From Candidatus Omnitrophota bacterium (GTDB lineage Bacteria; Omnitrophota; Gorgyraeia; B26-G9), in assembly GCA_003645745.1 (NCBI GenBank), contig QNCH01000001.1:1-35623 (forward strand): DNA of 35,623 nt, read 5' to 3'. A program made the position numbers and the translations under genes. Numbering within the stretch: the stretch's first letter is position 1; every line of letters starts with the position of its first letter. A model generated the notes under the pieces. That model searched no databases, had not been told where the DNA came from, and saw only the letters and a list, made by a program, of their open reading frames with translations. Shown here in pieces: positions 1-35,034 of this stretch.

Positions 1-62
1 AGGCAAATACAGTAAATATTATTGATAATGGACAGCAGCGCCAAATAAGTAAACATGAGTTT

Positions 63-3000
63 TTGAATAATTTTAGCGGGTATATCTTGGCGCAGGGAGA
101 AATTTCTTTTGGGGAGAAGTTAACTCAGGAGCAGACAAAGGATATTACGGGCTCCTTCTCCTCAGCAGCTCTTTTTAAGGCAATAACTGGAAGAAGTAGG
201 AAATCATCGGCTACTACTTTAAAGGATATTACGGTATCCTCATCCTCATCGGATCTGGTGGTAACAGATACTAATCATAACGGGAATTTAGATACCCAAG
301 ACAGGGTAACTATTTCTTCAAGCCAGGGAGAGGTAGAGACTATTTCAGGTTCGCAGGCAGTTGAGCGTATACAAAAACAAACAGGGTTAGAGCAGTCTGT
401 TTTTAATCTAACAGAGCTTAATAATTCTACTTATAATGTGAATATGGTTGATATCACTGGAACGCAAACCAGAATAACATCTGTTGCGAGACAGGACGTA
501 GTGAGAGTTGAGACAATTAATTATACTCAGTTATCAGAGGTTCAGAATAGTTCTTATACAAACTATGTTAGTAAAGGGAATTTTGAGCAGGCTGAATATT
601 TTTTAAAACAGAATAATTTATATCAGAATGAAAATACTACTGAGTATATGAGTGACGGCACAAACAAAGTTTTAGAGAGCAGTCAAGTTTTGGTTAGTGA
701 TTCTACAACGTGTGTTACGCGTACAGAGTCTGCGGGAGAAGATACAGTTGTTTCAGTAGAACAGATTGAAGATGGCAAACTTAGTCACAAAGATGTATAT
801 GCAGTTGCTGAAACAATAGAAAATAATATGTGTGGAGTTTCAGGGCTTAGTTTTGAATTACAAAAAGAAGATATAGTTGGGATTAAGTCAGCAATGGATT
901 ATAGTTATACAGATGGAGAAGTTGATTATGAGATTAGCCAGGTAAATTTTAAAGACGGCGCAGCAGTTAATTTTCAGAAAATTAGCCTTAAGTTGGATAA
1001 CTCTGATTATTGCCATATTAATGAGATAGGCTTTATTTATAATCGGGATCAAAATGGCGCTATTGTTAAAAATGAAGCTAAGGACTCAGAAGATTCTGAT
1101 GGCCAGCAGAGCGAGCAGACAGAAAATGAATATGTAAAAAATGCTCAGGCAGTGTTAGAAAACATCTCAAAATTAGAAGTTAACCAGACAGAAGAGATTT
1201 ACAAAGGTTCTGAGTTTGTTTCAGGAGTATATATTAAGGGTTTTACATTTGCTGAATATGACTCTGTTGATTTCGCGAATAATTCATTAAGTTATACTGA
1301 TGATGATAGTATTGTTTGGGAAGCAACGCAGATTACATTTAATGATCTTAATTTTTTATCAGATTCTTATGTAATAAACCCGGATTTTCTTGTTGCTAAG
1401 TTCAGTAAGAAGACAGAAAACGGTGTGTTAATTTTTGTAGCTCGAAATACCAGTATTACAGATGTTACAGATATTACTACAGCTGCTTACGATTTGTCAG
1501 ATACTTCCTTTAATTCTATCCAATATGTAAATAATAACGGAGATGTTTTTTTTGCGGATAATGTAAGTTTTGAAAGCCAGTCTTTACGCGGCGCATATAC
1601 CTTAGATATGCAAAAAGACTCAAGCGGCTGTTTTGAACATATTAATGTTCAAAATACTGATTCAGATGGCGTTGTAAGAGTAACTACTAATTTGGTAATT
1701 GATCCAAATGATTTAAGCAAGTCCAGCTATGACCTCTCAGATACATCTAAAAATTCAGTACAGCATAGGAATGAAAACGGAGACATTTATTCAGCGGATA
1801 ATGTAAGTTTTAATAGCGAGTCTTTAAGTGGTACTTATACATTGGATTTAACTAAGAATGGGGCGGGTAATTTTAAACATCTTAGTGTTTATAATATTGG
1901 CGATGATGGAGTGGTGCGGTTTACTTCCAATATTTCAGTAGAAGATGAACATAATATTAGGTCTGTTGAGTATGACCTTTCAGATACGTCTAAGAATTTT
2001 ATTCAATACAAAGGAGAAGACGGCGAGCGGCATACTGAAAATGTGAGTTTTTCTGGAGATAATTTAAGCAGTGCTTACACAGTTGTTGAAGTTGAAGAAC
2101 AGACAGAAGTGGAAACAGAGCCTGAAAGAAGCGCGGCTTTAGAAGCAATTACTACTTACGAATATGACGATCAGGGCAGAGTAATCGAGGAACGCAGGGA
2201 TGGCAATGTTTTATATCAAAATGAGAATGGCGACATAGCAGCAGTTACTGTGTATAAAGATTGGGTGATTAAATACGAGTATGATGAGAGCGGCAACAAG
2301 TCTTCAGAAGTTTTAAATGGAACAGTAGTAACTTATAACATAAAACCTGGGATTAGCTGTACTGCGGAAGATATAGATGCGTTATTGAGTTCTGATACAG
2401 CAAATATAACTGAGCTTGATTATAATCAGGATGGTGTATTAACAGCTGCGGATATGCAGGCTGCGATAAATCAGCAGCAATACTTGATTGATCGGATTGA
2501 CCGGTACAGCAGTAGGAGGCATAGAAGTAGCTCTCGTGTTAGAAGTGCTTCTAATGAGCTATCATCTCTTTTATCCCAATATGATTTAAATATTGACGGC
2601 ACGATTGATTCAGCTGATCTGGCTATTTTTGAAAAATCTGCTGAGTTTGTTGAAATTATCAGTAATATAACAGTGTCTATTACAGAATATCAGGATTTAA
2701 GTACTCAATATTCCTATGATAGTAATGGAAATGTAAGTTCTAAGGTTTTAAGTGGAAAAACTTATTCTATAGAGAACGTTAGTGATTATGAGATAGGGAA
2801 ATACACAATAGAAGAGATTTTGAATTCAAACGCGGATAAAGTTGATTTTAATCATGACGGCAAAGTAACTGTTAGTGATGTAAACTTAGTAAGTTCCGCG
2901 GTAGAGGAAGCGAATGAATTGATGAAAAGAATACAGCAGTATCAGGGGTATATTGATAACGGCAGCCATTATCAGGTTCCGTTAGCACAATGTGAGCGGC

Positions 3001-27000: not shown

Positions 27001-30000
27001 CATTATCTACTCAAATTGCAGTTCTGGATTTAGTTGCTAATGATCTTAAAGATACAAAATTAAAGATAGCGTATTTAGAACAGGCAATTGCCAAAGATCA
27101 GAGTAACCTAAATCTGAGCAATGGCCTTAAAAAACTGCCATTAATGTTGAGTTTAGGCCTTAAAGCAAACCAATTACAAGGCTCTGGATTAAAACAAATT
27201 CTTAAGAAACTAAAAGAAACTTTAACAATGTCTGGGATGCCGATTAATACAGGCTTAAAAGAGAAATTAGAGAATTTAAAGCAGGTTTATGCAAAATTTG
27301 AATTAAGTATTCCAGAGTTAAAAGAAATAGCAGATAATTCAGGCATAGATCAGTTAAAAGAAAATCCTTTAAGTTTAGGTTTATTATTTAATCCTGAGCT
27401 TGAGCAAACTCAAGTTACTAATGCGGAAAAATTAAGTGTTGTGTTAGAATTTTTAAGCGAACACTCAGCTGAACTTGCAGATGAGTTTGGCAAGCTGAGC
27501 TTAACAAATGTAACTGATTTTGGCAGTTTATCAAAGGATCAGCAGGAAACTATACTTAGTTATTTTGCAAAAGCAGGCCATGATTTAAAACCTGAAGAGT
27601 TTTCTAATTTACGGAGTATGCAGTCTATGCTGGGGAATGTCGGCGGATTTGGCATAGCTTCAATGCTGCAAGGGCTAATGGACAAGGTTTCAGATGATAA
27701 ATTTGCTGGGCAGGCCTCTGGTGCAGAGGCTGCAAGCTTGAGCGTAGAAGCTGAGGAGCAGAAAATTACTTTAGTGAACTGGTTTGCCGGCACAGATGTT
27801 AGTATTGGAGAATATTATGTAGCTGCAGCAGAGAGTAAAATAAAAGAAGCTCAGAAACCTGAGAATACGGAAAATAAAGCAGATTTAATTAGAAATGCAG
27901 TTGGTAATTTTAATAAAGTTATTGATAATCTTGAGAGTAGCGCAGCAGAAAGAATTAGCGCGTGTTTGGGGTTAGCAAGTATTTATACTGATCAGAATTT
28001 GGGTTATCTAACCCCTGGTAATTTAACGCATATAGACGGCTTGCTTGATGGAAAAACTAATAATGTAAACTCTTTGCTTAAAAACAAAGAACTTTCCGCC
28101 AAGCAAAAGAAGCAGTTTTTAAATCAATTAGCCCAGACAGAGCTTAGATTAAGTGATGCTTATCTGGGGCTTAAAACTCCTATGCCGATAAATTCTGTTA
28201 CCTATGGCATAAAAGCATTAAATAATATTAAAAAATTGCCTGAAGATGCAAGAGAAGATTTTGATTTTGATTCTGCGGCTTCTACACTTGCGCAAAGAGC
28301 GCTTAAAATTGAAGACAAAGGCTCTGCGATTATGTTCTTAAAACAAATCAGCGGGTTTGTTCCTGATCATGGCACAGTGCATTATTGTTTAGGCACAGTT
28401 CATCTAGAGCAGAAAAATCTGACTAAAGCAGAGCAAAGTTTTAAGCAGGCAATAGCTAAAATGCCAGATACAGATAAATTAAGAAATAACGCGTATTTGA
28501 GCTTAGCTGAAATTTACCTGGAACAGGAAGAAGCAGAAAAAGCAGAGCAAATTCTTGTGCAGGGTATGGAGAATTTTGTTGCGCCGAACGTTAAGCTTAG
28601 CGCAGCAAAAAGAAATCAGGCCATAGATGCTTATTTTGTTCCGGCATTTAATATGGCAAAAGATAAATTAGGCAATCTCAACCTTTGCGCTGAAATTCTG
28701 CAAAAGCGTCATTCTAAATCTAATATCCCGCTGGTGTCTTTATCAGACAGAGTCAAGGCAGCAGCGTATGCAGCAGCAGTAAAGATTGAACAGGGAAAAG
28801 CATTTAGCGCAGATGATTTTGCACGTGCTTATGGAATCAAAGATGTTGAACTGATTAATAAGTTTGGTGGGGCAGTAGGTAATTTGCGTGCAGCTAAAGG
28901 AGCATATAATGCAGACAAGTATGCAACTGCTGCAATTAATATTATTGCAGAGTTGGTAGGAACAATAAATACTCCATTAGAAAAAGCAGAAGTTATTGAT
29001 TCTCAAACAGTATTATCTGCTGATCCGAAATTTCAGTCCGCAGTTGATACTTTGTTAGCAAGCTTTAATGATTTAGCGCTTACAGAACAAGAACAAGTTG
29101 CGGCAAATAAATCTTTAGAGTCTTTCCGCAAAGGAGAGGTTGAACAGGCATTTAATATTTTGCACACAGGCTTAACCGTAAATAGTTCTAAAGATTATAG
29201 AATGTTGGTTGTTGGTTTTGCGATTGTGAACAAATTAGAAAGCGGAGCTGGTTTGGATAAAATAAGTAATTTAGTAACTAATTATGCGATGAATGCTGAA
29301 CCGAAAAGTAAATTACTGAATTTTGCGAATAGATTGATTAGTAATAAAGACAGCTATTCAGAATCAAATTATTTGATCAGTGTGTGTTCTCAGACAAAAG
29401 CTTTGTTTGAAAAAGACGTAGAATTAAGTTCGAATGTTGCTGGCTTTACTGAAACAAACGATATGTATAAAATGCAGGTTGGCAAAGATGTGTCTGAACA
29501 AGCAACTGTTGCGCAGGAATTAGCTGGTTTAGGTATTGTTTTGGGACAGGGCAAAGATTCAAAATATGTTACTATAAATGATTTTCTTAACGACAATGGA
29601 ATTACTGAAGCTAATTCAGCAATTAAAATTACTGCTGGGAATATAACCTATTTTGCGCGAACAGAAGGATTGGGAAATACTCCTGAATTAAGTATGCTGA
29701 TAAAAGTAAACAAAGGCAAAGTAGAAACAGTTGAAATTTATACTGCAGGAGTTTTCTCAAGACAGGTTCAAAAACAAGAAGATAAAGACAATTATTTATC
29801 AGCAATGCAGAGCCAGCCTGATCTGAAGAGGTTTGTGGTTGCCGCAGACGGACAGGTTGTTCAGGAACAGATTAGAGTTGACTCGCAGACTCAAGGTACA
29901 AAACAAAGCATGGGTTTTGATTCATTACGTAACCAGGTACTTGAAGCAGTCAGCGGGACTTTTAGAGAAAATAATGCTGGTAAGATTAACACTTTGCCCG

Positions 30001-30044
30001 TACAATTAATAGATGCGTTGCATACAGTAGGCGCGAGATTGTAA
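63..30044 (+). CDS. Giant (>=9,993 aa) multidomain membrane-anchored protein: EF-hand/dockerin-like loops, YD(RHS)-like repeats, novel tandem arrays, two Gly-zipper TM clusters, PG-binding-like motif, SecA/SF2-like ATPase, TPR-like tail; 5' end unresolved
   Basis: Single open frame of 29,982 nt with a TAA stop at 30042-30044, in AT-rich DNA. Every nested ORF in the other frames is <=203 aa. The translation shows coherent repeat and domain structure along its whole length (see sub-features). TTG at 63 is only the first start-like codon. The frame has no stop back to nt 3, there is no Shine-Dalgarno motif before 63, and there is no N-terminal signal peptide. Confidence 0.9.
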   Translation: MNNFSGYILAQGEISFGEKLTQEQTKDITGSFSSAALFKAITGRSRKSSATTLKDITVSSSSSDLVVTDTNHNGNLDTQDRVTISSSQGEVETISGSQAVERIQKQTGLEQSVFNLTELNNSTYNVNMVDITGTQTRITSVARQDVVRVETINYTQLSEVQNSSYTNYVSKGNFEQAEYFLKQNNLYQNENTTEYMSDGTNKVLESSQVLVSDSTTCVTRTESAGEDTVVSVEQIEDGKLSHKDVYAVAETIENNMCGVSGLSFELQKEDIVGIKSAMDYSYTDGEVDYEISQVNFKDGAAVNFQKISLKLDNSDYCHINEIGFIYNRDQNGAIVKNEAKDSEDSDGQQSEQTENEYVKNAQAVLENISKLEVNQTEEIYKGSEFVSGVYIKGFTFAEYDSVDFANNSLSYTDDDSIVWEATQITFNDLNFLSDSYVINPDFLVAKFSKKTENGVLIFVARNTSITDVTDITTAAYDLSDTSFNSIQYVNNNGDVFFADNVSFESQSLRGAYTLDMQKDSSGCFEHINVQNTDSDGVVRVTTNLVIDPNDLSKSSYDLSDTSKNSVQHRNENGDIYSADNVSFNSESLSGTYTLDLTKNGAGNFKHLSVYNIGDDGVVRFTSNISVEDEHNIRSVEYDLSDTSKNFIQYKGEDGERHTENVSFSGDNLSSAYTVVEVEEQTEVETEPERSAALEAITTYEYDDQGRVIEERRDGNVLYQNENGDIAAVTVYKDWVIKYEYDESGNKSSEVLNGTVVTYNIKPGISCTAEDIDALLSSDTANITELDYNQDGVLTAADMQAAINQQQYLIDRIDRYSSRRHRSSSRVRSASNELSSLLSQYDLNIDGTIDSADLAIFEKSAEFVEIISNITVSITEYQDLSTQYSYDSNGNVSSKVLSGKTYSIENVSDYEIGKYTIEEILNSNADKVDFNHDGKVTVSDVNLVSSAVEEANELMKRIQQYQGYIDNGSHYQVPLAQCERQFSALLAKYDLTGDGVIDLADFAFCQENVGLYKIFDIGGSIAVTEYKAFTTDYTYDSNGEIKSETLNGSVANYSYSIKNGTAHKYTVEEMLNLDTDKINYIIEKQKNYSSHRHIIELYVERYARYGVSAEELSQYDLTGDGVIDSADFAFYNRALELVAIRKDNSFSVTEYKDLVTEYNYDGQGNVISEIKNGKMMECSIFSGGKNTELTEYENYEVNYTYNEQAQVTSMSYSGKITTYQIKNKNVTFDNIEEICQQMGNSAGAIEKSVTEYDNYQITNINYNEDGEIISQAQDGKIIITTLSGVVTKTYTSEVADGQVVSQIIDKYADMEDKDLSGHFKEVYTYKRNDQGDMLEETVEQFASNIGDSELTLIEKQVKTYEYNSDGKITKQATDVYKLQVVEAEHWTYKPAGYMSKVDQKDELIPEIRDFVLTAQEIITYTYDSEGVLSGKTTDTYELLVMRDAHWTYLPPQNRSVCLKDEWVPAERELVLTKQEAAVYDNAGTMVENTINTYAAQKTGGHWVRSYDDSGKRKSIWIADKKVMVNTKQEVTTYEHNSSAGTIKESTDIYVLPSDEHKQELVLSGRVVNLRQYNSMGTLLSVTTDTYGTPEDKRDLRDWQRANPSEDLMHLKQDVVTYEYDNTGKLSKVTTDSAWYRDRQNTQTSIMYTYSGNTTAIVTTVKNYAGNVTSKEVTLTFSNGGSYTQGKAGTRWWSEIKSVAGDVISKGGAAGKGGSSNWIKKYDLQGNLRMSQSSSHFSGRDTGYHTTKETQEDGSVVTVNTLWESSWSNSSFSLQRWDVFGIRTANKNNSSSSSSSSNLRKTVTVQYADTTNSAGETIKGGKTVTEYRKGEFKSSEVFNGSGKKILACNTSGITYADALYEPKLTAFFNDNPDFSNRAVTGSFDTQSNLVVSLVLSEGALFNVISFAGAACTSKNIAGGDAVIGDVIGQIQTMDSGAVVAELGLNAGTAAAESLNETAYGWTTYRGTEDIYAQDLSRIATVTYTPMDKLKNLVTYKDNSIDQTYALEELPEEDAPIIEPAADADADSGANTFADWTGAGTNLTIIDNNNNGIMDDGDSVNISNGDSTANMTVSEAIGVIQQQTGVNLSEGIELSAAEINNQISSSGYGVNMININSNQTTITSANSQGTRIYTMEHSQLSDAQNSSYTNYLSAGNFQQAEWLLKANHLYTGGNVRENLSDGTNVELSRTNLLAYGDNLCVTRTEYAEMPAIVSVEAFKDEKLSHKDVYGVAESSAENTIYEVSGFEFGLSGEEIVGISSAADYSYTEGEDDYEISQVNFENGTAVNFQKINRRLSDSDYCLIEETGFIYHRDENGNIIKIETEETKATNSSGGQQENESIKNAQDVLSNISEVETESEGNIYEGVAMLSSEYISGFITAVYDSSNIEENTLRYTDENNITWEASNVTFADLNSLTNTYTIDADSLVALSKTEKNGGLLICSTTNTSITDVNDITTGAYSLSDTEQNAVMYVKDNGDTYTALNVTFNTESLTGGYDLDLSVDANDNLKYISVYNKGEDGITRSTINIVLNRGNDLSRASYSLADSAQNSLEYRDENGDIYTAENVSFAGRTLDSEYTLDLSADENGGLNYVSVYNTDENGVATGTTNISIEDEHNLKSASYSLTETANNFVQYTDDDGCKYSAENVSFSGETLDSEYTLDLSRNTDGGLNNISVYAVAQDGTIRGTANVVIEDEHNLSLASYDVSNAKHNYMQYIDESGVVWKVSNVEFSEGTLSGAYQLHDIAGFSDEELLGKTLPKIASEFSELVSSGPSQYAGLKESRFGAAGKYDISVDLNEGIATYVQDSDFIFAITLTEKEGAGEGVSFQAGDLISYRSVRIITEDRVMTDVITGGEFTLSAGTYTSMVDLLEGTETVFAEDENDSSYIFTTVDRTATFDDSQETVDFNAGDLIGGRYSIDLTEAKFITDPITQQQVSIAPGTYTVALDLLEGTETIITDQDKGFYYTFTTIDREIMIENATNLVNFNAGDFVAGRYEITLTEDIRLPDLNISGKGIGAVMPQGTYIVVVDMKSATQTFLAPNNEEFYYTFTTVGRRVKFEGIENDVIISVDAGGFIAGRFAVHIGKGVSYELFASRLRSSGDISAYGWSDEMSVEYGYAVEGDHIAESDVLGGTNTIIDEENDSFWTFTTVRRDLALPEPAEGWGRRDSRTRRIEKGALISFRYQARVEKDISLDYGEILAKGNYIVEKDCIARTETYTNKSDASYYTFYVGSKEDLSSSYDRLSNQGMKTSRGRARRNRQIEEVRKQLIYINGPGILIKSGKEKTISSEDNVGFNDFLTGQQKQVQEGKYFCEIDYLEKIETLSNKETGNIYSFALNSVEVGKGWEKGYILERGDFIGGRYTVNLEQDLPITDWKTNQQVNIGAGEYTAVVDLLEGTETLVDAENDFYYTFTTIDRSLADTEQRDGYNFSAGDFIQGRYSLTIGQETDASLSLEDGVDDISAQQELSVTDPVSSQQVNFAAGEYIAQVDLLKGIEILIDQQNTDDNFHYTFTTVRINLAPEGVAAANVQAGTLIEGRYEVILSSNINILDVETNQTTTLQAGESYIAALNLLAGQEVLTTNSGDNLEATSYTFIINNPAVSNAADNYIFDLKTGNVVAPRNVTYDAGGQITGYEYSEMYGALNHTISGITRENDIAEPETLSTFPQSQIIGNKVTGWQCISDDLISGEIETTQRTGITYDQELRIAGYTDRITSPATPELVTTNIVSDVMKWDAQGNPLEYTQVNRQQSLLAEEFERLGGGPQEVTISVTARGGGNHSMPYFGVFVNGEEVSRWQLGHDVSNVYTVTLTLSLGDSIEIRQIDIPKHGSTNLTKVEVTLGDTTFSTNMDDKRNSASWASDYRLATDQIMQGEDVSDGYYQLYPYKGRGAGSVDITGQIFLNSIETKVVSDTQLDSGGNLISWKETIVTNAAPNLTTESVYTRTSTGVIIKSHLFGTDPNGNLRGNKDIENEVTQSLINVYNSSSELQQQFPDALNPDNSSAKQELINWAQQTGYAENAELSAYAPAEQLTIDYYTTSKITFLDDNGSYKSELADGRGNIIVTKEIHNADGSITTTTLGGYDDENAPGSNKKHRDQSWDTNMVFNSTQFSTVTQSQFQYNGLGQKIAYEQKINGGDTQHIYGITYNQYGQMSGKVMKEGRSTTWTHDIKYNALDLKTFEIGNAGYKSSKFSSLTITETTYQYDQYGMVKHIDKDVTYHKEWVKKSFMSNPVVMIVAAIIIAIIAVFTAGAGLALLGVGGAAGASAIGAGMAAVSSMFTMSLTVGSLIATCGGAFIGSMGASLLAGNSFGDALTAGAIGAVGGLVGSALGPLMQGFGAGWAGNAGNIVSGFNQMGTIAQGLVKAGAWVGSKLGGAANLISSGIGKIGNFFSPAISGIKDFFAPLTSKFSEFGGKIAGAWGKVKNFVKTNIGDKVKNFYNHGTATVPATTTQKVVTSIADRAMYIGAVEGLDSVGVGNDGAMIIGGAIVGGIIGGSGAGTTFEQGFTSGAVQAGVSQLDLGGWENVVGVAASVAVDAKISGTKISKIPAAEIQKIAGSAVYTGMQKVGQALGIDPTLTSINSILLRSQCLDKPETALVSGVTNLAVTSAIQAITGKEWSELSNTERLLAAGVADIFSIAATEAYFASDSGNFKDNFENKLRSGLEAAYTFGAPDNLTTGNLSDYLGSVIDFGNDYMENGLADSLVNITTDTWINQAVDEIGGQYGLIAGIFGDVETGGDIDGSRYILQENEDGTKIRVWNNGSITYENSLGEEIGHRRSFNSNFDPAQLEGKVVYVEAWDSGKRDYYAYNQDTNKFILIGSTEQQKIPERPVYSFNSEYTEEFTEIINNGLTSIDVLNNGLMPITQYDYLSTYMPQMYEGNFSLLSSVPDQTAPAITAITYNPIAQIYQYQYTDGNTGLYNQNNHNFALANQNGQVLGNWTFNPAQGTSLYDYYINNNAVNQVTGQSPAFSGIDFNNGIVYSQDNDPNAAHNQAYLLSGQGEVAGEVYFTPNRTIVDTGYDTLTTNIGLYPGNSLMQNSAGTFDVYFDPTQGTIINAQDSNVGFNSVIPANANFFTGDAGINATTINLHGNTDIIDTGVEEISTSSGQGGSGGQAGTAYLQENNGSVWVHAGENASLTVNYNLQNQAVFNHGQKFMIDGNYPVTINNVNTHSGLVTGIEGGIQPSIDAIFETESLGFVQSVNYEGVIGLHSMSVPANDAVILDNSLLGTSLPELGIGVSGQQLKINNINADGRVVGLGIDSSLGVNAQSQIGFRDNYSEQTISLSSDLSPGQEVHIGLGLNGGYVLTKDLEIDPFAGGGRINAGSAVSDLTIGADGSVTSLEFSNMGVSVDLFKGESFGIGQNIYDYSQNDNYSSGTSTGAGNDVWVNKDLSNNFSLQNGRINISENKGVTFNSGDSVRFSGLSDQDVITIHNGDAIEFKGNTFGLHLTNALPYTEDINQQITLITNQGKTRTDLSATEVIGADGKVQAYYGFEGFSSQDAGDEVRLGEIAYQVTNVGGKYKLTTALETENLQQQYTYNNKEYSLGLEKGNILFTPDLMGRLVSAEEVNMGNGSKLKELSINPGAINKEGVITQAGINTATVYLSSADGLDIAEDLVINSDKMMSSAQTTNNFLEVSKDPENMTYLDRDNQIMHGIVHLQSDASGQVGVHYVYGQQFEISNADTVRDSVLINGVAAGNGEWMVLNNTAVLISETGQMWDLDVLNGQGQNASALVNIDTHMEQGEKANQYTIYGHTAKYEFTQENIGYTVLKNGQEFKVQEIDGEIGLGLDNLSVTNPEDNKVYLHTDYISNAELIKGGLNLYDIDNRLNTQIAFRGQDSAGPSNGVLNYVYTSGMDANKDFYIQQKTYQFSKDHKYTGFNLNTSTYFNDQSLQVRTENQTGAYSLRKIDANGRVTEYSFSTQKTQTDISKEINDLGIHGVSINDQDKFRVVSLGSEAVTWLQGKELGIKADGIFGANTQTSVSNYLNPELGRNTREHNLGVIGYYSGFLNSENTGLLLGGINTLQTQQAIEQSKDALTGNWVQGENGGKIYTGDIMLGGLSVENVTVEFNSDEKIEKIKLNEENSGKVYLMPGEKGNVGIDKQAYEFSAGAEGAQEKIYLGQMDEKFNVTLSADLAVKDFENDFIIMADYQGVQAELTLGANGLTLINGVYQANQKVYLHTIPDGGGSTSPTTNITNVNIRDYNSPDTYLISGIVEVRGGQELIFTEGASLSVWQEPGSTFTYNGQTWVQGSWDVGANGQLEARKDESYVQLFKEGGLDCRVSGIGRPDHGITWKEITGDTSIDSKVSLASVDPTSIFYGGTLGIESGSLVARNAPYLRVSTDEMGNKVMFAGHTDENGLRHDMRYSSSYSHPSETDSSIDPYFARMDAIHPEDAINFTVSNLAANNESAWRVFSAQVEISDASFAEFLADIDAGIASGAISENPTFNFSVESTDGKIASVTSTWELKNGREYVPVYEQEYDGNPIALGQTFDVIFNQGTDKEITRSYVVEEFGSELRFMSASRVTENKQAVILNQTREIDLAQGPVYELYNLQNNVFSLRGTKEVNGHTGVGFIGDNEEFLLLNGNKVSKTENTYFVNQGIGYSITDLGTGLDNAYISSGVGGAGGESKENKIRIFDRNGEVYIAKDCLFTIQNNQWMVTGSDSLENIGDTKIKVINANGDDQFLRGGVYARISEGKLNTYVSGGVVDYNDKWSRYGKNVLELPGRGIKAVFDETDGVWSALGKTVSIGLIGGAAVTASVFGAVEMGSLIPGAIKSVEGGFISKSALGLTGLESGSISYGLAVGAIKLAGSVAVGSAGMAGIEAVRGGSSEEIKEAAFEGAKMGAYYWGLSGALGLVSHASKLELSAEAGELFTGNVFQRAGQRLAAYVGRGQSTQKLANVLGKGATRATYAGRMAADTALGVAETSLGVGRISIPFHAGAKVVEALIETTPIEDHIWGVEKLAEFGQGNIEDAILQGFVFGAVLGLPPLRWATGAAAGLGRKMLSKPGEILYATPLGSTVGRAAAKLVNDPVLKAASMGGVFSAISSGSEIYQILNDDSRDLFSKESLEDIAISGAVGFGMGVAWSLGSSAAQGIGNLAKSSLLKRTANAGVKAVTSAKNTFSMLAREGYVENTFSGMLQTCGVDPYTAEILAELLPEKGGGASAKAFAYTNMGSVISYSEDSQGLGNKINLSSLNTEEDSRIEANLTRLEAKYNLEDGTLTNRLNSGSLTATGVMSTINESGSSGISVSEVCSEVGISVGMVQESLSLDAAQMENEFGISIEKGNAFEGTTLSELSILGGTPEHWENQVSLEEAKKLGIDISEFQSPGISDTDTIISIEAKLGKDSESAQKLRSRIGDISIAEYAKVKGVSLESLAEKSNCELKASLVSGDSAMSEFARAKGLSINAEFLAQYDLNLGSIQGRLEGKTIEDKLSETIDAELAEVKKDLKFNAEQLASLPAKGETRTKERLGLEQTKLISAKQQLETLRENIGQIETTNELSAISEKLGIETGQLLDKVGIKVSDLWKINGKDKEQFAKDENVKIAPKYALDQEQLMGEGENVNALIESLIAGNQAISLVVKDDAGNLVLEFNQASKIEVKAFDKKTGIIHIAVDSSGIKQEFDLTIDQDGGLLKVESGKISINSEVFELESAEDDDGNIIWKIKEDIGNKAQQKMARRMNTILDKFAQSRGYELSVRNDVNQLESVLKLAFDPETFWEIPAGTGKTKAIFTVAAAFTAEFTGRKIVNVLHNKPLLKDAVQDDFKGNGELGERGEFFQSLAVVSQADFADLVGQDNVDALIEDLIDQGYIDAELNILPAFRQTNEKDFSLVCQDKGYAMQSAQIYTVLETASKGITSLQFTQEDLKILEKGGDNAEKLIQRINDADVIYIESDAWGFLALEAQQANKFNWGEKKWVKQAHNAIFGDSKVIHDEVDTMFGKNRFQQGQDARILTDTEIDAILFVHKAMQGIVKQGMVESKQDFDNPVERVKAERGLLEFSVQHRDTFEDSTMSYEEYKSLADPYNYNVKGVAYNKKAKEALVEYINENGITTESGDKHEFEVKYDNGDIVLVNENGTNEKILTTVKASLSGRVKVLRQYEGGAMGYDDASGLMKPFANKNLAPDLQISDPYLAGHTEVVGKDLMSEELKTKGQQVEPLLRKMRLSGRALITTMARAMRMARKVGADISGFSGTIAPVSQLSSAFYGINTVLNNAENKGMRLFDSENKLERTDTESEALQSIDLENGKVHVCLTGLKGIDEQVITTEMLEMYQREGYTVIFKDQQTGWLVYRTDKLEAGELSGLVTAELQENTEFKEKKLTAEQVNQACALIVNKVNNDTEINLEVVSNLHNAKIKAELITEIETELKITSEQAQALVDTALNSANNLLVEQRDTNQIEGYLEKERTAEEKVMFFYNLSACRGTDVSFADRSIKGVMDKVEGEVDVHAFFDPLSVDFDVEQLLKRDRGLKLQNPANNGKWEFVFNETNSENSGFVFENQKDPEKNYTPVYNALTVHYVGKVSDDAQTVDQRTAKYILEQYVSPEQAQAVMAGLGNAQVEVSAFTQKLKDNGISEETIAKVTDFIKISYVFAQNGISEQKDMMYKGLSDIYDTLTGEFIDSLIETAHNPIEMKKIQEMQKDFYESFGSDTNIKLIESAPSAVDALQTKLNNIIDFFESRKNKGNDPVFSVLSKTNKQKIQAFIDARPKLNLTGKIDHRAVPIGMADSLAQAVDSTNKLIKVSDLPTIVSMSGKAHTTITAQSYESREDSMQNFTDSEKKEFKQGLEQRGLLDGNTLSASGVVAMNALETLEKADDKVKTELMKLAESRGKDLRNSIAMLLWFLLDEDLFSVNELSSATMDKLIHIIAVIQSFGKAVNRNALIGKIKNIQHTDDPLALPKAVLAELEKDIGQYKDLSKKITSEVSSIAQEDRLNTAKAIVLESSFDHATKVKIITNLEGIQNIDDPFALGKAVFGAIESKGSIGKLSLYEALSTQIAVLDLVANDLKDTKLKIAYLEQAIAKDQSNLNLSNGLKKLPLMLSLGLKANQLQGSGLKQILKKLKETLTMSGMPINTGLKEKLENLKQVYAKFELSIPELKEIADNSGIDQLKENPLSLGLLFNPELEQTQVTNAEKLSVVLEFLSEHSAELADEFGKLSLTNVTDFGSLSKDQQETILSYFAKAGHDLKPEEFSNLRSMQSMLGNVGGFGIASMLQGLMDKVSDDKFAGQASGAEAASLSVEAEEQKITLVNWFAGTDVSIGEYYVAAAESKIKEAQKPENTENKADLIRNAVGNFNKVIDNLESSAAERISACLGLASIYTDQNLGYLTPGNLTHIDGLLDGKTNNVNSLLKNKELSAKQKKQFLNQLAQTELRLSDAYLGLKTPMPINSVTYGIKALNNIKKLPEDAREDFDFDSAASTLAQRALKIEDKGSAIMFLKQISGFVPDHGTVHYCLGTVHLEQKNLTKAEQSFKQAIAKMPDTDKLRNNAYLSLAEIYLEQEEAEKAEQILVQGMENFVAPNVKLSAAKRNQAIDAYFVPAFNMAKDKLGNLNLCAEILQKRHSKSNIPLVSLSDRVKAAAYAAAVKIEQGKAFSADDFARAYGIKDVELINKFGGAVGNLRAAKGAYNADKYATAAINIIAELVGTINTPLEKAEVIDSQTVLSADPKFQSAVDTLLASFNDLALTEQEQVAANKSLESFRKGEVEQAFNILHTGLTVNSSKDYRMLVVGFAIVNKLESGAGLDKISNLVTNYAMNAEPKSKLLNFANRLISNKDSYSESNYLISVCSQTKALFEKDVELSSNVAGFTETNDMYKMQVGKDVSEQATVAQELAGLGIVLGQGKDSKYVTINDFLNDNGITEANSAIKITAGNITYFARTEGLGNTPELSMLIKVNKGKVETVEIYTAGVFSRQVQKQEDKDNYLSAMQSQPDLKRFVVAADGQVVQEQIRVDSQTQGTKQSMGFDSLRNQVLEAVSGTFRENNAGKINTLPVQLIDALHTVGARL
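219..2085 (+). repeat. Paralogous module A1 of the giant ORF (~620 aa; EF-hand-like loop, conserved blocks, ~80-aa tandem units at 1455..2085)
   Basis: EF-hand-like loop DTNHNGNLDTQD at 267..302. Conserved blocks are NSSYTNY..GNFEQAE, KLSHKDVY.VAE and DYEISQVNF..G.AVNFQKI. About three tandem units follow with the pattern Y.LSDT..N..Y....GD.Y.A.NVSF....L...YTLDL. A1 aligns along its whole length to 6180..8280. An exact 27-nt match (gattatgagattagccaggtaaatttt) occurs at 924 and 6867, an in-frame offset of 5,943 nt. Confidence 0.85.
2148..5100 (+). other. YD/RHS-like repeat block 1 of the giant ORF
   Basis: Many copies of the Y.YD..G..(hydrophobic) beta-hairpin motif: YEYDDQGRVIEE, YEYDESGNKSSE, YSYDSNGNVSSK, YTYDSNGEIKSE, YNYDGQGNVISE, INYNEDGEIISQ, YEYNSDGKITKQ, YTYDSEGVLSGK, VYDNAGTMVEN, YEYDNTGKLSKV. 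This matches the consensus of RHS/YD repeats (Pfam RHS_repeat PF05593, TIGR01643) by eye only. Confidence 0.7.
2340..3480 (+). repeat. Three ~125-150 aa units carrying paired dockerin/EF-hand-type Ca-loop motifs, interleaved with YD hairpins
   Basis: D.N.DG.(I/V)...D loops are DYNQDGVLTAADM (2418..), DLNIDGTIDSADL (~2582..), DFNHDGKVTVSDV (2844..), DLTGDGVIDLADF (3027..) and DLTGDGVIDSADF (3405..). Loops occur in pairs ~40 aa apart, as in the two-segment dockerin module (Pfam Dockerin_1 PF00404). The third unit has lost its first loop. A 50-nt stretch at 3023 and 3401 differs at only 2 positions. Confidence 0.6.
6180..8280 (+). repeat. Paralogous module A2 of the giant ORF (~700 aa; one extra ~80-aa tandem unit; tandem part 7395..8280)
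   Basis: EF-hand-like loop DNNNNGIMDDGD at 6192..6227. It has the same ordered blocks as A1: NSSYTNYLSAGNFQQAE, KLSHKDVYGVAE, DYEISQVNFENGTAVNFQKI. Four to five tandem units follow (e.g. SYSLADSAQNSLEYRDENGDIYTAENVSFAGRTLDSEYTLDLS). An acidic linker EELPEEDAPIIEPAADADAD precedes it at ~6075..6135. Confidence 0.85.
8521..10850 (+). repeat. Tandem array of ~9-10 copies of an unrecognised ~80-105 aa repeat in the giant ORF
   Basis: Recurrent grammar: (F/V)(N/Q)AGD(L/F)I.GRY...L......(I/V).....QQV....G(T/E)Y.(A/V).(V/L)DLLEGTET......(D/N)..(F/Y)YTFTT(V/I)(D/G)R. The cleanest copies start near 8521, 8761, 9001, 10098, 10330 and 10618. Central copies (9240-10090) are degenerate and contain Arg-rich inserts. 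Confidence 0.85.
10908..12690 (+). other. YD-like repeat block 2 of the giant ORF, ending directly at the first TM cluster
   Basis: Motifs NVTYDAGGQITGYEY, GITYDQELRIAGY, KWDAQGNPLEY, FQYNGLGQKIAYE, ITYNQYGQMSGKV and YQYDQYGMVKHI. The last hairpin ends ~10 codons before the hydrophobic run at 12729. No Rhs core motif (P....DP.GL) was seen. Confidence 0.55.
11331..11567 (+). other. Small beta-sandwich/CBM-like insert (tentative)
   Basis: The sequence PQEVTISVTARGGGNHSMPYFGVFVNGEEVSRWQLGHDVSNVYTVTLTLSLGDSIEIRQIDIPKHGSTNLTKVEVTLGD has alternating beta-strand periodicity. Its pattern (I.V.A.G....P.F.V.VNG..V..W.......Y.V...L..G..I.I) is common in carbohydrate-binding jelly-roll modules. This is pattern resemblance only. 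Confidence 0.3.
12729..13060 (+). other. Transmembrane / glycine-zipper cluster 1 (~aa 4223-4333; about 3-4 helices)
   Basis: PVVMIVAAIIIAIIAVFTAGAGLALLGVGGAAGASAIGAGMAAVSSMFTMSLTVGSLIATCGGAFIGSMGASLLAGNSFGDALTAGAIGAVGGLVGSALGPLMQGFGAGWAG. The run is ~110 aa with almost no charged residues (a single Asp), is rich in G...G/A...A zipper spacing, and is flanked by KEWVKKSF on the N side. Confidence 0.8.
13474..13535 (+). other. Additional glycine-zipper hydrophobic segment
   Basis: GAMIIGGAIVGGIIGGSGAG is a single ~20 aa G..G zipper, ~140 aa after cluster 1. It could be one further membrane pass, which changes the topology parity. Confidence 0.5.
17892..18135 (+). other. Peptidoglycan-binding-like motif (PG_binding_1-type) in the inter-TM region
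   Basis: LGSEAVTWLQGKELGIKADGIFGANTQTSVSNYL fits the PF01471 core pattern G..V..LQ..L.....DG.FG..T...V..(F/Y). A second degenerate copy follows: LGVIGYYSGFLNSENTGLLLGGINTLQTQQAIEQ. Confidence 0.55.
20270..21330 (+). other. Transmembrane / Gly-Ala-rich hydrophobic cluster 2 (~aa 6737-7090; several helices separated by short polar loops)
   Basis: Hydrophobic segments are TVSIGLIGGAAVTASVFGAVEMGSLIPGAI, ISYGLAVGAIKLAGSVAVGSAGMAGI, GAYYWGLSGALGLVSHA, FVFGAVLGLPPLRWATGAAAGLG and IAISGAVGFGMGVAWSLGSSAAQGIG. Confidence 0.7.
21787..22630 (+). repeat. About seven short helix-turn-helix-like repeats ((A/E)..(K/E).G(I/V/L)(S/D/E)(I/V/L)......)
   Basis: Instances are SEVGISVGMVQESL, NEFGISIEKGNAF, EEAKKLGIDISEFQ, AEYAKVKGVSLESLAEK, SEFARAKGLSINAEFLAQ and SEKLGIETGQLLDKVGIKVSDLWK. 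They are spaced ~25-45 aa apart. Confidence 0.45.
23150..25450 (+). other. SF2 (DEAD/DEAH-type) two-lobe ATPase module with a SecA-like motif set and large inserts
   Basis: Walker A is EIPAGTGKTKA (23202..23225, aa 7714). Walker B/motif II is VIHDEVDTMF (DEVD at 23835..23846, aa 7925). Motif III-like is ISGFSGTIAP (24603..24617, aa 8181). Motif V-like is SACRGTDVSF (25293..25313, aa 8411). A possible degenerate motif VI is QLLKRDRG (~25413..25440). For comparison, the SecA motifs are TGEGKT, DEVD, GMTGTA, AGRGTDI and QLRGR.GRQG. A ~250 aa insert sits between motifs II and III, the position of the SecA preprotein cross-linking domain. Confidence 0.65.
28368..28578 (+). other. Two TPR-like helical hairpins in the C-terminal tail
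   Basis: HGTVHYCLGTVHLEQKNLTKAEQSFKQAIAKMPDTDKLRNNAYLSLAEIYLEQEEAEKAEQILVQGMENF shows the 34-aa TPR signature spacing (G..Y/H......A...F..AI...P). Confidence 0.6.
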
Positions 30045-30135: not shown

Positions 30136-30227
30136 TCTAATAGAAATAAAATAACCATCTAATTTAATATATAAGGAGTTTTTTTAATTTGTTTAAATTT
30201 TTAAGGGGTTACAAAAAGGAGCTGTGT

Positions 30228-30410
30228 TATACTCAAATGTAATAGGTTTGCAATTTTATGACGTTCCCCTCACACTGCATCTTGAAACGTTTTTTTATCT
30301 CCAAACCTTAACGCAGCAAGCTGCGCCTGCGGTTTGTCTTAGGTCAGATCGTTCCAATCTACAGTACAGGGAAATGTCTAAATTTTACAAACCTATTACG
30401 TTTGAGTATA
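30228..30410. repeat. Palindromic MITE/REP-like element, copy A (183 bp)
   Basis: Its termini tatactcaaatgtaataggtttgcaatttta ... aaattttacaaacctattacgtttgagtata are inverted repeats. The inner segment acgttcccctcacactgcatcttgaaacg has a degenerate inverted partner at ~30351-30380. It shares ~80% identity with the left arm of copies B and C. Confidence 0.8.
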
Positions 30411-30431
30411 GGTTGAATTTTGCCTATGTGG

Positions 30432-30456
30432 ATTCCCGCTAAAAGATTGCGGGAAT
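30432..30456 (+). promoter_or_regulatory. 8-bp perfect hairpin in the leader of the 30629 CDS
   Basis: attcccgc (30432-30439), a 9-nt loop, then gcgggaat (30449-30456). Sequence-related arms recur at 30515-30523 (atttcctgc) and 30574-30582 (gcaggaaat). Confidence 0.35.
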
Positions 30457-33911: not shown

Positions 33912-33940
33912 TATACTCAAACCTATTACGGTTGAGTATA
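33912..33940. repeat. Palindromic element, minimal copy D (29 bp; fused termini only)
   Basis: tatactcaaacctattacggttgagtata has a 9-bp terminal stem, tatactcaa/ttgagtata. It corresponds to the outer ends of copies A and B without the interior. It ends 2 nt from the stop codon of the minus-strand permease gene. Confidence 0.6.
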
Positions 33941-35031: not shown

Positions 35032-35034
35032 TGT

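Follow-up and report, generated by a model that had tools for sequence, protein, structure and literature searches.

The window analyzed here, meaning the whole stretch of 35,623 nucleotides, contains one giant open reading frame (ORF) followed by two further genes (Table 1). No stop interrupts the giant frame between base 3 and the TAA codon at 30042-30044 on the forward strand, a span of 10,013 sense codons. A first-pass annotation of this DNA had placed the start of the ORF at position 63, and the ORF listing does report 63..30044 (+), or 9,993 amino acids. However, there is no in-frame stop 5′ of the TTG at 63, so the window boundary must cut off the 5′ end of the gene, whose product must have at least 10,013 residues. 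Residues are numbered here from that TTG (the 9,993-residue ORF). The N-terminus of the protein and the upstream genes, where a T2SS-like locus would be expected, lie outside the window. An lptF/G gene does adjoin the giant gene on its 3′ side, as first annotated. Neither an Rfam nor a tRNA scan found anything in the window.

Table 1. Positions of genes, predicted domains, and motifs in the window (residues counted from the TTG at position 63)
Feature	Position	Strand	Residues	Remarks
Giant ORF	3..30044	+		At least 10,013 codons plus TAA; 5′ end cut off by window
Head module, copy 1	165..1232	+	35-390	Non-repetitive; no Pfam/PDB relative; 49% identical to copy 2
RepA array 1	1233..2198	+	391-712	Four 81-aa units
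YD/RHS-like repeats interleaved with dockerin/EF-hand Ca-binding loops	2148..4952	+		Pfam, motif, BLAST
Head module, copy 2	6096..7172	+	2012-2370	
RepA array 2	7173..8360	+	2371-2766	Five 81-aa units
RepB array	8409..10955	+	2783-3631	Ten ~76-aa units; no Pfam/PDB sequence relative
Pre-anchor region	10956..12731	+	3632-4223	No family match; YD-like motif at aa 4193, just before TM helix
Transmembrane (TM) helix VVMIVAAIIIAIIAVFTAG	12732..12788	+	4224-4242	Only unambiguous TM helix; hydrophobicity
Gly/Ala-rich region	12789..13982	+	4243-4640	Several marginally hydrophobic segments
Asn/Gly-rich low-charge region	13983..20249	+	4641-6729	~2,100 aa
Second Gly/Ala-rich cluster	20250..21362	+	6730-7100	Marginally hydrophobic; peaks 6738-6756, 6789-6807, 7064-7082
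Ser/Glu/Leu-rich linker	21363..23114	+	7101-7684	Conserved in P0001 and P0003; no significant family match
Predicted SecA-like SF2 motor ATPase	23115..25622	+	7685-8520	Motifs, family alignment, Foldseek
Motif I, PAGTGKT	23202-23222	+	from 7716	E. coli SecA 105
Motif Ia, VLHNKP		+	from 7742	SecA-motif alignment; E. coli SecA 131
Motif II, DEVD	23835-23846	+	from 7925	E. coli SecA 209
Motif III, GFSGT	24603-24617	+	from 8181	E. coli SecA 389
Motif V, CRGTDV	25296-25313	+	from 8412	E. coli SecA 508
Motif VI, QLLKRDRG	25416-25439	+	from 8452	E. coli SecA 570
Conserved alpha-helical region after motor	25623..27995	+	8521-9311	
TPR repeats	28269..28604	+	9403-9514	TPR_19, TPR_2 above cut-off
C-terminal remainder	28605..30041	+	9515-9993	No family match
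Downstream neighbor	30629..33814	+	1,061 aa	Signal-peptide-like N-terminus; internal ~83-aa repeats; no Pfam match
LptF/LptG-family LPS export permease	33943..35151	-		PF03739, E 1e-78; real start probably near 35031

Several measures indicate that the giant frame is a real gene. Between bases 3 and 30044, one stop is found among its 10,014 codons, compared with 774 and 1,195 in the other two forward frames and 387-679 in each of the three reverse frames, and the runner-up ORF in this span has 203 residues (5288..5899, reverse strand), just as initially reported. Base composition gives a probability of about 1e-335 for a frame without stops, and this value, together with hundreds of stops in each of the five other frames, excludes a chance origin, in agreement with the initial view. 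Because TGA and TAG are both absent in frame, the result is independent of the genetic code. GC content by codon position is even over ten 3-kb blocks (GC1 0.45-0.53 > GC2 0.33-0.43 > GC3 0.27-0.34), the purine fraction at codon position 1 is about 0.70 across the ORF, and codon-position composition is like that of the downstream 1,061-residue gene. Collapsed repeats and misassembly had been raised as a concern. DNA repeats within the ORF reach at most 76% identity over more than 100 nt, one 58-nt pair is 93% identical, and TRF detects no tandem array at the DNA level. Because these repeats are so diverged, collapse or a chimeric join through near-identical copies is unlikely, a judgment made from the sequence alone. 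On these coding statistics, the window holds the 3′ 30 kb of a single genuine gene with over 10,000 codons.

The encoded protein is a mosaic, and its N-terminal half holds the parts that the first-pass annotation had listed as two paralogous modules, dockerin-like loops with YD repeats, and a novel tandem array. The modules (aa 35-705 and 2012-2740) are 46-54% identical, and each joins a head to 81-residue RepA units, of which there are nine in total. Pfam, run on the giant protein as two overlapping tilings at E ≤ 0.01, matches Dockerin_1 at 54.5 bits (E 1.4e-14; cut-off 22.9), EF-hand_5, _7, _1, and _6 above cut-off, and RHS_repeat and YD_repeat_2x at 39 and 35 bits, also both above cut-off. 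Three units of about 145 residues carrying YD motifs and dockerin loops cover aa 771-1187; their boundaries were taken from BLAST, and an iterative HMM that drifted to spurious segments was discarded. Five calcium loops begin at aa 786, 841, 928, 989, and 1115 (span 786-1126), and about ten YD motifs are scattered over aa 699-1616. The RepB units, which form the novel array, are 18-43% identical to their reference unit.

The calcium loops resemble those of cellulosomal type I dockerins, with paired copies of D-x-[DN]-x-[DN]-G-x-[IV]-x-x-[AS]-D. However, the paired loops are 55-61 residues apart, start to start, and the Pfam match to the 57-position Dockerin model is therefore stretched over 71 residues. 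Each pair also lies inside a ~145-residue unit that bears a YD motif, and neither a cohesin partner nor a glycoside hydrolase is found in the window.

Membrane segments were called with hydrophobicity scales rather than with a trained predictor. No strongly hydrophobic window occurs in aa 1-4223, where the sole candidate, at aa 1887, is marginal. The region once annotated as TM cluster 1 does include one clear helix (aa 4224-4242; Kyte-Doolittle 2.97, summed biological hydrophobicity -3.5 kcal/mol), but the remainder consists of marginal Gly/Ala-rich segments (G+A 36% in aa 4251-4500), and the first 60 residues after the helix, from aa 4243, contain no charged residue. What had been called TM cluster 2 is marginally hydrophobic only, with a best window of +2.3 kcal/mol; its peaks recur at matching places in two related proteins, P0001 and P0003. 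The Asn/Gly-rich middle region is present as described (Table 1); it lacks internal repeats, matches nothing in Pfam, PHROG, or the PDB, and is collinear with P0001 over its last ~1,080 residues (from aa 5648). The peptidoglycan-binding-like motif of the first-pass annotation finds no Pfam hit even at E ≤ 1, and its HTH-like repeats, in the linker at aa 7101-7684, reach at best E = 0.02 in Pfam. The absence of PHROG hits spoke against a phage tape-measure-like nature of the Gly/Ala-rich clusters, and the absence of tblastn hits among 50,697 phage records against a phage origin; both readings were rejected.

Beyond the linker lies the SF2 ATPase that had been annotated, an assignment now backed by motifs, by ResIII and DEAD matches in relatives (10 and 6 of 12 family members, respectively; Pfam), and by Foldseek. 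Motifs I, Ia, II, III, V, and VI are spread over its two RecA-like lobes in the same order as in E. coli SecA (paired start positions in Table 1), with an offset of 26 residues from I to Ia in both proteins. The motif forms also agree: DEVD for II, G-x-[ST]-G-T for III, A-x-R-G-T-D for V, and Q-L-x-x-R-x-[GR] for VI. Across the family, the invariant positions are the P-loop, DE(V/A)D, GAxxxGxxGT, AxRxxD, and QLxxRxRG, and hhalign pairs the family ATRGTD with SecA residues 507-517 (AGRGTDIVLGG). An alpha/beta insertion between motifs II and III sits where SecA has its preprotein-binding domain, the folds being compared by position only, and a long helix follows lobe 2 (50 residues in the model, aa 8565-8614). 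AlphaFold models of the motor have pLDDT 73 and 66 (complete motor 66). For the complete motor, SecA accounts for each of the top five Foldseek matches in the PDB (E 3e-6 to 7e-5, probability 1.00, ~1,100 columns), but TM-scores are low, at 0.21-0.39.

The resemblance is distant at the level of sequence. The motor is about 10% identical to SecA, has larger insertions between motifs I and II and between III and V, and, unlike SecA, is fused into a polypeptide exceeding 10,000 residues, where it lies toward the C-terminus and downstream of its own membrane segments. SecA HMMs (Pfam SecA_DEAD, SecA_PP_bind, and SecA_SW; NCBIfam SecA) gave no hit at E ≤ 1 in the window protein or in 7-11 relatives, and hmmsearch with the family HMM found nothing significant in E. 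coli SecA, DinG, or RhlE. Against these three as single sequences, hhalign gave low probabilities of 30%, 8%, and 3% with alignment A1, and of 2%, 12%, and 1% with a longer local alignment, so that the ranking depended on the alignment. As a single sequence, the ATPase has a sub-threshold ResIII match in Pfam (E 0.0075) and none in the PDB; searching PDB sequences with the family profile yields weak helicase P-loop hits (Slh1/Brr2, E 0.009), or none in another run. Judging from the motifs and the models, this domain is most likely an SF2 motor of a very diverged, SecA-like kind with all catalytic motifs intact. The TPR-like tail noted at first is also borne out by Pfam (Table 1).

An exact 40-mer from the window does not occur in the genome_contigs or metagenome_contigs collections, and the 1,061-residue neighbor is likewise not on record. 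A search of 1.84 billion representative proteins found only 28 relatives of the ATPase region, P0001 among them (E 7e-147). All 8 looked-up clusters with an organism name are Candidatus Omnitrophota MAGs, as are the four best matches of the LptF/G protein among GTDB species genomes (30-34% identity), which supports the earlier guess that the DNA comes from this phylum. By BLAST, P0001 is collinear with aa 5648-9311 of the giant and P0003 with aa 6110-8909, and no relative aligns to residues before aa 5648. In P0003, TPRs occur at the same distance after the ATPase as in the giant protein. By motif, dockerin loops and YD arrays are absent from the nine larger relatives. At the loci examined, relatives lie in ORFs of at least 4,400 residues, and P0003 has 4,041; synteny of a giant gene with lptF/G was seen in none of eleven other loci. 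By these alignments, the C-terminal ~4,000 residues are a conserved, Omnitrophota-specific cassette, and the N-terminal part of at least 5,600 residues is lineage-specific, with arrays that appear to be interchangeable.

The first-pass annotation held that this protein fits no standard family, but published Omnitrophota giants share its layout. Thousands of proteins of at least 10 kaa have been catalogued in this phylum, among them a "dockerin-bearing" class (Nielsen & Lui 2026; bioRxiv 10.64898/2026.06.07.730766). West-Roberts et al. 2023 (bioRxiv 10.1101/2023.11.21.568195) described "Dockerin-type" giants that have dockerin/EF-hand repeats, an N-terminal part mostly without TM helices, and, close to the C-terminus, TM anchors followed by a SecA-related domain. 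Like these, the window protein is placed in Omnitrophota by its relatives and by LptF/G, is encoded by a single giant ORF, has dockerin/EF-hand calcium-binding repeats in a long N-terminal part without strong TM helices, has membrane segments in its C-terminal half with a probably SecA-related ATPase downstream, and is Pfam-unannotated over most of its length. It differs in having about 2.5 dockerin modules, fewer than the type examples, and in interleaving its dockerin loops with YD repeats. Furthermore, its ATPase is too diverged for Pfam SecA_DEAD, the model that recognized the published examples, and at least 10,013 residues are visible here (5′ cut) versus at least 30,000 in the three type examples. 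No pilZ was identified downstream, where the next ORFs encode the 1,061-residue protein and LptF/G, and TSP3 repeats, discoidin, DUF1080, and GNAT were not found in the visible part (two Pfam tilings, E ≤ 0.01). Compared by description, the giant protein is a further example of the published dockerin-bearing class and not a new kind of system.

We consider it probable that the giant protein belongs to a diderm Omnitrophota bacterium, falls in this class of dockerin-bearing giant membrane proteins, and has a two-part architecture for which an anchored cassette, a surface fiber, and a SecA-like motor form a reasonable working model. The N-terminal part of at least 5,600 residues would supply components of the surface-adhesin type (the duplicated head and 81-residue repeat module, the YD/dockerin/EF-hand region, and the 76-residue array) and would also take in the strong TM helix, Gly/Ala-rich segments, and the first ~1,000 residues of the Asn/Gly-rich stretch. 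The cassette of ~4,000 residues would run from the end of that stretch through the second Gly/Ala-rich cluster, the helical linker, the SecA-like two-RecA ATPase, and the long helical region to the TPR repeats. It might sit at the inner membrane with its ATPase and TPR tail in the cytoplasm, and the repeat arrays might extend outside the cell as a calcium-stabilized fiber that attaches to a cohesin-like partner or to the surface of a host or prey cell. The motor would then spend ATP to move polypeptide across the membrane. Its substrate might be the giant protein after translation or else partner proteins. One point against the model is that a C-terminal motor is synthesized last and has no way of exporting its own N-terminus while translation is under way.

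A more tentative idea, which we regard as possible but doubtful, is that the cassette is a previously unrecognized, Omnitrophota-specific "anchor-and-motor" unit, in which a SecA-derived ATPase is now dedicated as a built-in export or remodeling engine for giant surface fibers. The cassette stands almost alone in P0003, whereas in the window protein it is fused to at least 5,600 residues of dockerin/YD/repeat arrays, and it may have served as a foundation to which unrelated giant arrays were joined at the N-terminus. If this idea is true, it would represent a way of secretion unlike any known type and would explain part of the "Pfam-dark" fraction of Omnitrophota giants.

It could be argued instead that the ORF is an assembly or annotation artifact, or that internal starts or obligatory proteolysis turn it into several separate products, such that no 10,000-residue protein exists in the cell. 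The contig is of the metagenome type, other Omnitrophota giants have been suggested to be cut by peptidase domains of the C39 or S8 kind, and proteomic coverage of such giants is sparse (bioRxiv 10.1101/2023.11.21.568195). Nevertheless, we find this very unlikely given one stop in 10,014 codons versus hundreds in every other frame, coding statistics that are even along the whole ORF, no near-identical repeats able to misjoin, a final ~4,300 residues collinear with independent relatives from other assemblies, and no peptidase domain in the visible part by the Pfam tilings. A Rhs/YD-type polymorphic toxin, or a CdiA-, RTX-, or Bap-like secreted adhesin-toxin, is highly improbable and largely refuted. 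The RHS_repeat and YD_repeat_2x matches reflect a YxYDxxG(R/N) hairpin motif shared with Rhs and teneurin proteins, and the large repetitive arrays are of extracellular type. However, the YD motifs are too few, too scattered, and too interleaved with dockerin loops to form a continuous shell, the Rhs core DPxGL (scanned as DPxG[LWF]) and the RTX nonapeptide GGxGxD are absent, and the C-terminus consists of an ATPase and TPRs with no toxin. Searches of Pfam and NCBIfam gave no match to TPS, FHA, PAAR, toxin, or T1SS-signal families in the visible part, which is also devoid of the BIg- or cadherin-type Pfam repeats expected, along with GGxGxD, of RTX/MARTX and Bap/LapA T1SS adhesins. For CdiA, neither FHA nor pretoxin families occur in the visible 10,013 residues, the N-terminus lying beyond the window.

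Alternatively, the ATPase might act on nucleic acids as a helicase or translocase like XPD/DinG/DdmD or Cas3, in a cassette that handles DNA or RNA (in uptake, defense, or attack on host nucleic acid) rather than protein. XPD, DinG, and DdmD are close competitors in Foldseek and give the best E-values for a shorter model (aa 7685-8300), relatives match Pfam ResIII and DEAD, and a few of them have weak Cas3 or type IV DinG matches (PADLOC, NCBIfam). Moreover, NCBI names P0003 a "DEAD/DEAH box helicase family protein," and DinG surpassed SecA in one local hhalign run. Even so, this proposal seems quite improbable, because the complete motor places SecA first to fifth over ~1,100 columns versus ~650 for XPD, and because motifs II (DEVD), III, V (ARGTD), and VI (QLxxRxRG) follow the SecA/DEAD pattern, which motif V of XPD and DinG is not known to follow. 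In addition, the ATPase is linked to membrane segments in one polypeptide, and no nucleic-acid-binding domain was found. PADLOC gave no hit for the window protein, and a defense-helicase reading was rejected on this basis. The topology of the SecA-like protein is also subject to an alternative, in which the N-terminus is inside, the arrays and motor are cytoplasmic, and only the Asn/Gly-rich 2,100 residues are periplasmic or surface-exposed, leaving a mostly cytoplasmic, membrane-tethered protein. The strong TM helix has a net charge of +2 on its N-terminal flank versus 0 on the other side, and by the positive-inside rule the arrays of "extracellular type" would thus be cytoplasmic. The uncharged 60 residues after this helix, the lack of a signal peptide in the visible part (the true N-terminus is outside the window), and the two hydrophobic clusters that flank the low-charge stretch fit the same arrangement. 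Of 916 analyzed Omnitrophota long proteins, 46% have predicted TM helices, no signal peptide, and a predicted cytoplasmic bulk (bioRxiv 10.64898/2026.06.07.730766). However, a two-residue charge difference is weak evidence, and the marginal Gly/Ala-rich segments might add passes that alter the count. Furthermore, type I dockerins, EF-hand calcium loops, and YD repeats function outside the cell in characterized systems, and we therefore judge a cytoplasmic location of the arrays to be unlikely.

Few large features of bacterial genomes are as poorly understood as the giant genes of Omnitrophota, which have been proposed to help ultra-small bacteria attach to host or prey cells and attack them. 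The present analysis does not overturn current views, but it sharpens a testable hypothesis on how giant envelope proteins are anchored and energized. The C-terminal third of one such protein is a cassette that is both conserved and rare (28 representatives in 1.84 billion). Because the ATPase matches SecA best by Foldseek yet is invisible to SecA HMMs, Pfam surveys probably undercount SecA-like motors in these giants. With 4,041 residues, P0003 is far more tractable than a 10,000-residue protein for expression, ATPase assays, and topology mapping.

The giant frame (residues numbered from the TTG at position 63) is real and lies far outside chance, as the first-pass annotation had claimed. The longest ORF, 63..30044 on the forward strand, encodes 9,993 aa, and the runner-up in the span encodes 203 aa. 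Across bases 3-30044 this frame has 1 stop in 10,014 codons, whereas the other five have 387-1,195 stops, and the probability of such a stop-free frame, calculated from base composition, is ~1e-335. Because in-frame TGA and TAG codons are entirely absent from the ORF, the genetic code is not an issue. Codon-position composition is alike in all ten 3-kb blocks (GC1 > GC2 > GC3, with position 1 ~70% purine) and similar to that of the next gene. No DNA repeat within the ORF exceeds 76% identity over >100 nt, and TRF detected no tandem arrays in its DNA; with near-identical repeats lacking, misassembly through them is unlikely. The end and frame originally assigned to the ORF thus stand. However, its start does not, since the translated window shows the frame already open at base 3, and the TTG is merely the first start-like codon past the window edge. 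The gene is truncated at its 5′ end by the window, and its product has at least 10,013 aa.

Segment by segment, the anatomy first proposed for this protein proved largely right. Self-comparison recovers two paralogous modules (aa 35-705 and aa 2012-2740, 46-54% identical), each consisting of a ~360-aa non-repetitive head followed by 81-aa repeats (four copies in module 1, five in module 2). The heads are 49% identical to each other. Three ~145-aa units span aa 771-1187, and the tandem array described as novel comprises ten ~76-aa units at aa 2783-3631, with 18-43% identity to the reference unit; neither the 81-aa nor the ~76-aa repeat profile has PDB relatives. Past aa 3631, self-comparison found no internal repetition. 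Two overlapping Pfam tilings and one NCBIfam tiling recognize only RHS/YD repeats (39 bits in Pfam, 35 bits in NCBIfam), Dockerin_1 (54.5 bits, E 1.4e-14 in Pfam) accompanied by EF-hand families, and TPR repeats, in agreement with the dockerin-like loops, YD repeats and TPR-like tail already recognized. Over 90% of the protein is Pfam-dark, and phmmer found no PDB sequence relatives for three stretches: 4,223 aa at the N-terminus, 2,096 aa in the middle and 1,113 aa at the end. Two smaller assignments fell away: the peptidoglycan-binding-like motif (aa ~5958) has no Pfam match even at E<=1, and for the HTH-like repeats (aa ~7150-7600) Pfam reaches only E 0.02.

The two transmembrane clusters that had been proposed reduce to one clear helix at aa 4224-4242 (VVMIVAAIIIAIIAVFTAG; Kyte-Doolittle 2.97, summed biological scale -3.5 kcal/mol), and the remainder is marginal. 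Gly/Ala-rich, marginally hydrophobic segments trail this helix until ~aa 4640, and a weaker second cluster at aa 6730-7100 has a best window of +2.3 kcal/mol. Between the clusters lies the Asn/Gly-rich region already recognized, which is ~2,100 aa long and poor in charge. A further segment at aa 1887-1905 (window 5721-5777; LVVSLVLSEGALFNVISFA), in the unannotated linker leading from the YD/dockerin region to the second head module, is marginally hydrophobic (Kyte-Doolittle 1.89, +3.5 kcal/mol, one Glu) and probably does not span the membrane but forms a buried strand or helix.

Features of the giant protein (aa) and its neighborhood (window positions). ATPase motif positions, with E. coli SecA equivalents in parentheses, are invariant or nearly so in the family alignment.
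Feature	Position	Strand or pattern	Basis or remark
Dockerin-type Ca loops (5)	starts aa 786, 841, 928, 989, 1115		motif scan
YD motifs (~10)	between aa 699 and 1616; one extra at aa 4193
Motif I	aa 7716 (105)	PxGxGK[TS]	family alignment
Motif Ia	aa 7742 (131)	H/T-N strand	family alignment; 26 residues after motif I
Motif II	aa 7925 (209)	hhhDE(V/A)D	family alignment
Motif III	aa 8181 (389)	GAxxxGF[ST]GT	family alignment
Motif V	aa 8412 (508)	A-x-R-[GA]-x-D	family alignment
Motif VI	aa 8452 (570)	Q-L-x-x-R-x-R-G	family alignment
TPR repeats	aa 9403-9514		Pfam/NCBIfam tilings
Palindromic element, full copies	30227-30410 and 35039-35194		intergenic; hairpin folding
Palindromic element, partial copy	35587-35622
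Palindromic element, lone arm	33918-33940
1,061-aa protein gene	30629-33814	+	next after giant ORF
LptF/LptG-family permease gene	33943-35151	-	convergent with 1,061-aa gene

Relatives of the ATPase region reveal which part of the giant is conserved. When aa 7600-8499 were searched exhaustively with HMMER against 1.84 billion representative proteins, 28 relatives came up, nearly all of 1,300-7,800 aa, the top match having E 7e-147 and 43% identity. A word-indexed protein search, which stopped at 8,000 candidates, returned nothing, yet relatives of 40-46% identity exist in that collection, so for compositionally biased giant proteins such a result does not signify absence. In four more metagenome loci, relatives lie within ORFs that reach the locus edge and are at least 4,400 aa long. 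Among ten clusters examined, all eight that bear an organism name are Candidatus Omnitrophota MAGs, and the best four matches of the neighboring LptF/G protein in GTDB species genomes (30-34% identity) likewise all come from Omnitrophota MAGs. The DNA thus very probably comes from an Omnitrophota bacterium, as had been guessed, and as far as sampled the ATPase family is rare and restricted to this phylum.

In full-length comparison, two relatives are collinear with the giant: P0001 over aa 5648-9311, and P0003 (MBU1043415.1) over aa 6110-8909. The latter has 4,041 aa, a Met start and no partial flag, and consists of little besides the shared region. Its ResIII match (1774-1849) and TPRs (3425-3670) are offset from each other by ~1,650 aa, which matches the window protein, and hydrophobic clusters lie ~700-2,000 aa upstream of motif I in the relatives, likewise in the giant. 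No relative aligns to residues before aa 5648, and a motif check of nine larger relatives found dockerin loops or YD arrays in none. On these alignments, the giant is a conserved ~4,000-aa cassette preceded by at least 5,600 aa of lineage-specific N-terminal sequence. NCBI names P0003 a 'DEAD/DEAH box helicase family protein' and another relative only a 'tetratricopeptide repeat protein', labels that mask their common ~4,000-aa architecture.

The proposed SF2 ATPase is supported. Among 12 single members, Pfam detects ResIII in 10 (best E 2e-6) and DEAD in six (7e-7), SecA_DEAD in none, and no member matches the NCBIfam SecA models. All six motifs are nonetheless of SecA-like type, occur in order and are collinear with those of E. 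coli SecA; the I-to-Ia spacing is equal, and motif II is DEVD in both. By hhalign, the family ATRGTD was paired with SecA 507-517, over 11 columns only, and against single sequences probabilities were low and ranking unstable. An AlphaFold model of aa 7685-8300 built from a 12-sequence alignment (pLDDT 73) shows a two-lobed RecA-type fold with two insertions, a helical one between motifs I and II and an alpha/beta one between II and III. Foldseek places DdmD, XPD, DinG and SecA together, SecA being best in TM-score and rmsd. Because this model lacks motifs V and VI, aa 7685-8880 was also modelled (pLDDT 66, pTM 0.60). The top five PDB matches are then all SecA (B. subtilis, M. tuberculosis, T. 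thermophilus; E 3e-6 to 7e-5), with ~1,100 aligned columns versus 650-950 for XPD and DdmD. A 50-residue helix after lobe 2 (aa 8565-8614) would sit at the place of SecA's helical scaffold. Neither PADLOC nor phage records gave a match to the window protein. Our reading is that the ATPase is a very diverged SecA-like SF2 motor whose predicted catalytic site is intact and which is only a candidate member of the SecA family proper.

The first-pass annotation held that the protein fits no standard family. Indeed, an Rhs toxin is ruled out (no core motif, no toxin), as is an RTX adhesin (no nonapeptides), and the Pfam/NCBIfam tilings show no CdiA features in the visible part. However, the giant probably belongs to a known, recently described kind of Omnitrophota giant protein. 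These have been described in two types, of which the 'Dockerin-type' carries EF-hand/dockerin and TSP3 repeats, has most of its N-terminal part free of TM helices, places its TM anchors toward the C-terminal end ahead of a SecA-related domain, and forms ladder-like repeats of beta modules flanked by dockerin-like helices (West-Roberts et al., bioRxiv 10.1101/2023.11.21.568195); CAILPI010000004_73 is one such sequence. Antiparallel beta-helix tubes and ladders of dockerin and CBM35 modules are reported for the class, and a typical Omnitrophota giant gene would be expected to have a T2SS/Tad-like locus upstream. Compared by published description, the layout agrees. In contrast to that type, dockerins here are few and interleaved with YD repeats; TSP3, discoidin and GNAT domains are absent from the visible part; the SecA-like domain escapes detection by HMMs; no pilZ gene is apparent in the downstream part of the window; and the visible length is only 10 kaa or more. 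A survey of the authors' own Omnitrophota genomes and NCBI high-quality MAGs counted 5,761 proteins of at least 10 kaa, and its 916-protein catalogue lists dockerin domains in 21, SecA_DEAD in one 20-protein architecture group, and 137 proteins without a match in any InterProScan database (Nielsen & Lui, bioRxiv 10.64898/2026.06.07.730766). What our analysis adds is a rare conserved cassette of anchor, cryptic SecA-like motor and TPRs, evidence that N-terminal arrays are swapped onto it, and, in P0003, a 4,041-aa stand-alone relative fit for experiments.

The analysis itself shows which parts there are and in what order, that the cassette is conserved and its ATPase motifs intact, and from which phylum the giant very probably comes. 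In general, extracellular adhesive fibres stabilised by Ca are built from elements such as dockerin/EF-hand loops, YD hairpins and beta-rich tandem arrays; an ATPase requires the cytoplasm, and TPRs make protein-protein contacts. These general roles suggest a working model in which the cassette would anchor the giant in the inner membrane, the motor and TPR tail would face the cytoplasm, and the arrays would be displayed at the surface, where they might bind a cohesin-like partner or a cell of the host or prey. Polypeptide might then be driven through the membrane by the SecA-like motor.

The simplest surface-fibre version is hard to square with two observations. The strong TM helix is flanked by a net charge of +2 on its N-terminal side versus 0 on the other, followed by 60 uncharged residues, which favors an N-in orientation. 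Furthermore, the C-terminal motor is made last and so could not export its own N-terminus co-translationally. The main rival is thus a mostly cytoplasmic, membrane-tethered giant with only the Asn/Gly-rich stretch outside, and this 'TM-only' kind of topology is predicted for 46% of the 916 Omnitrophota long proteins (bioRxiv 10.64898/2026.06.07.730766). A further reading, in which the cassette serves as a dedicated engine derived from SecA that exports giant surface fibres, seems to us rather unlikely.

The 1,061-aa protein encoded next to the giant could be its putative secreted partner. Its N-terminus resembles a signal peptide (MKKYGFFRQVSVVVVWSFLIANLGMYLPAARLVYAQ), and it contains several ~83-aa repeats rich in Ala, Val, Thr and Gln (63-82% identical at the DNA level, positions 31608, 32109 and 32358); neither a Pfam family nor an exact entry in the contig index matches it. 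A palindromic intergenic element of ~160-185 nt, with terminal inverted repeats of ~24-30 nt (TATACTCAAAYGTAATWGGTTTGYAATTTTA ... TAAATTTTACAAACYWATTRCGTTTGAGTATA), occurs in at least two full copies, each forming a single long hairpin when folded (-71.9 kcal/mol, z -12.3; -66.9 kcal/mol, z -8.0). It has no Rfam match and resembles either a structured RNA or an element of the MITE/REP type. This element is probably the source of the spurious ORF 30224..30442 and of an N-terminal extension of the lptF/G ORF. The adjacent LptF/G protein matches PF03739 (E 1e-78); the window shows one such gene, and three related Omnitrophota loci (L003, L004 and L007) have two tandem paralogues. With the GTG at 35151 that is listed as its start, the protein gains ~40 residues in a stretch shared with the palindromic element, and because the Pfam match begins only at residue 46, the true start is probably the Met near 35031.
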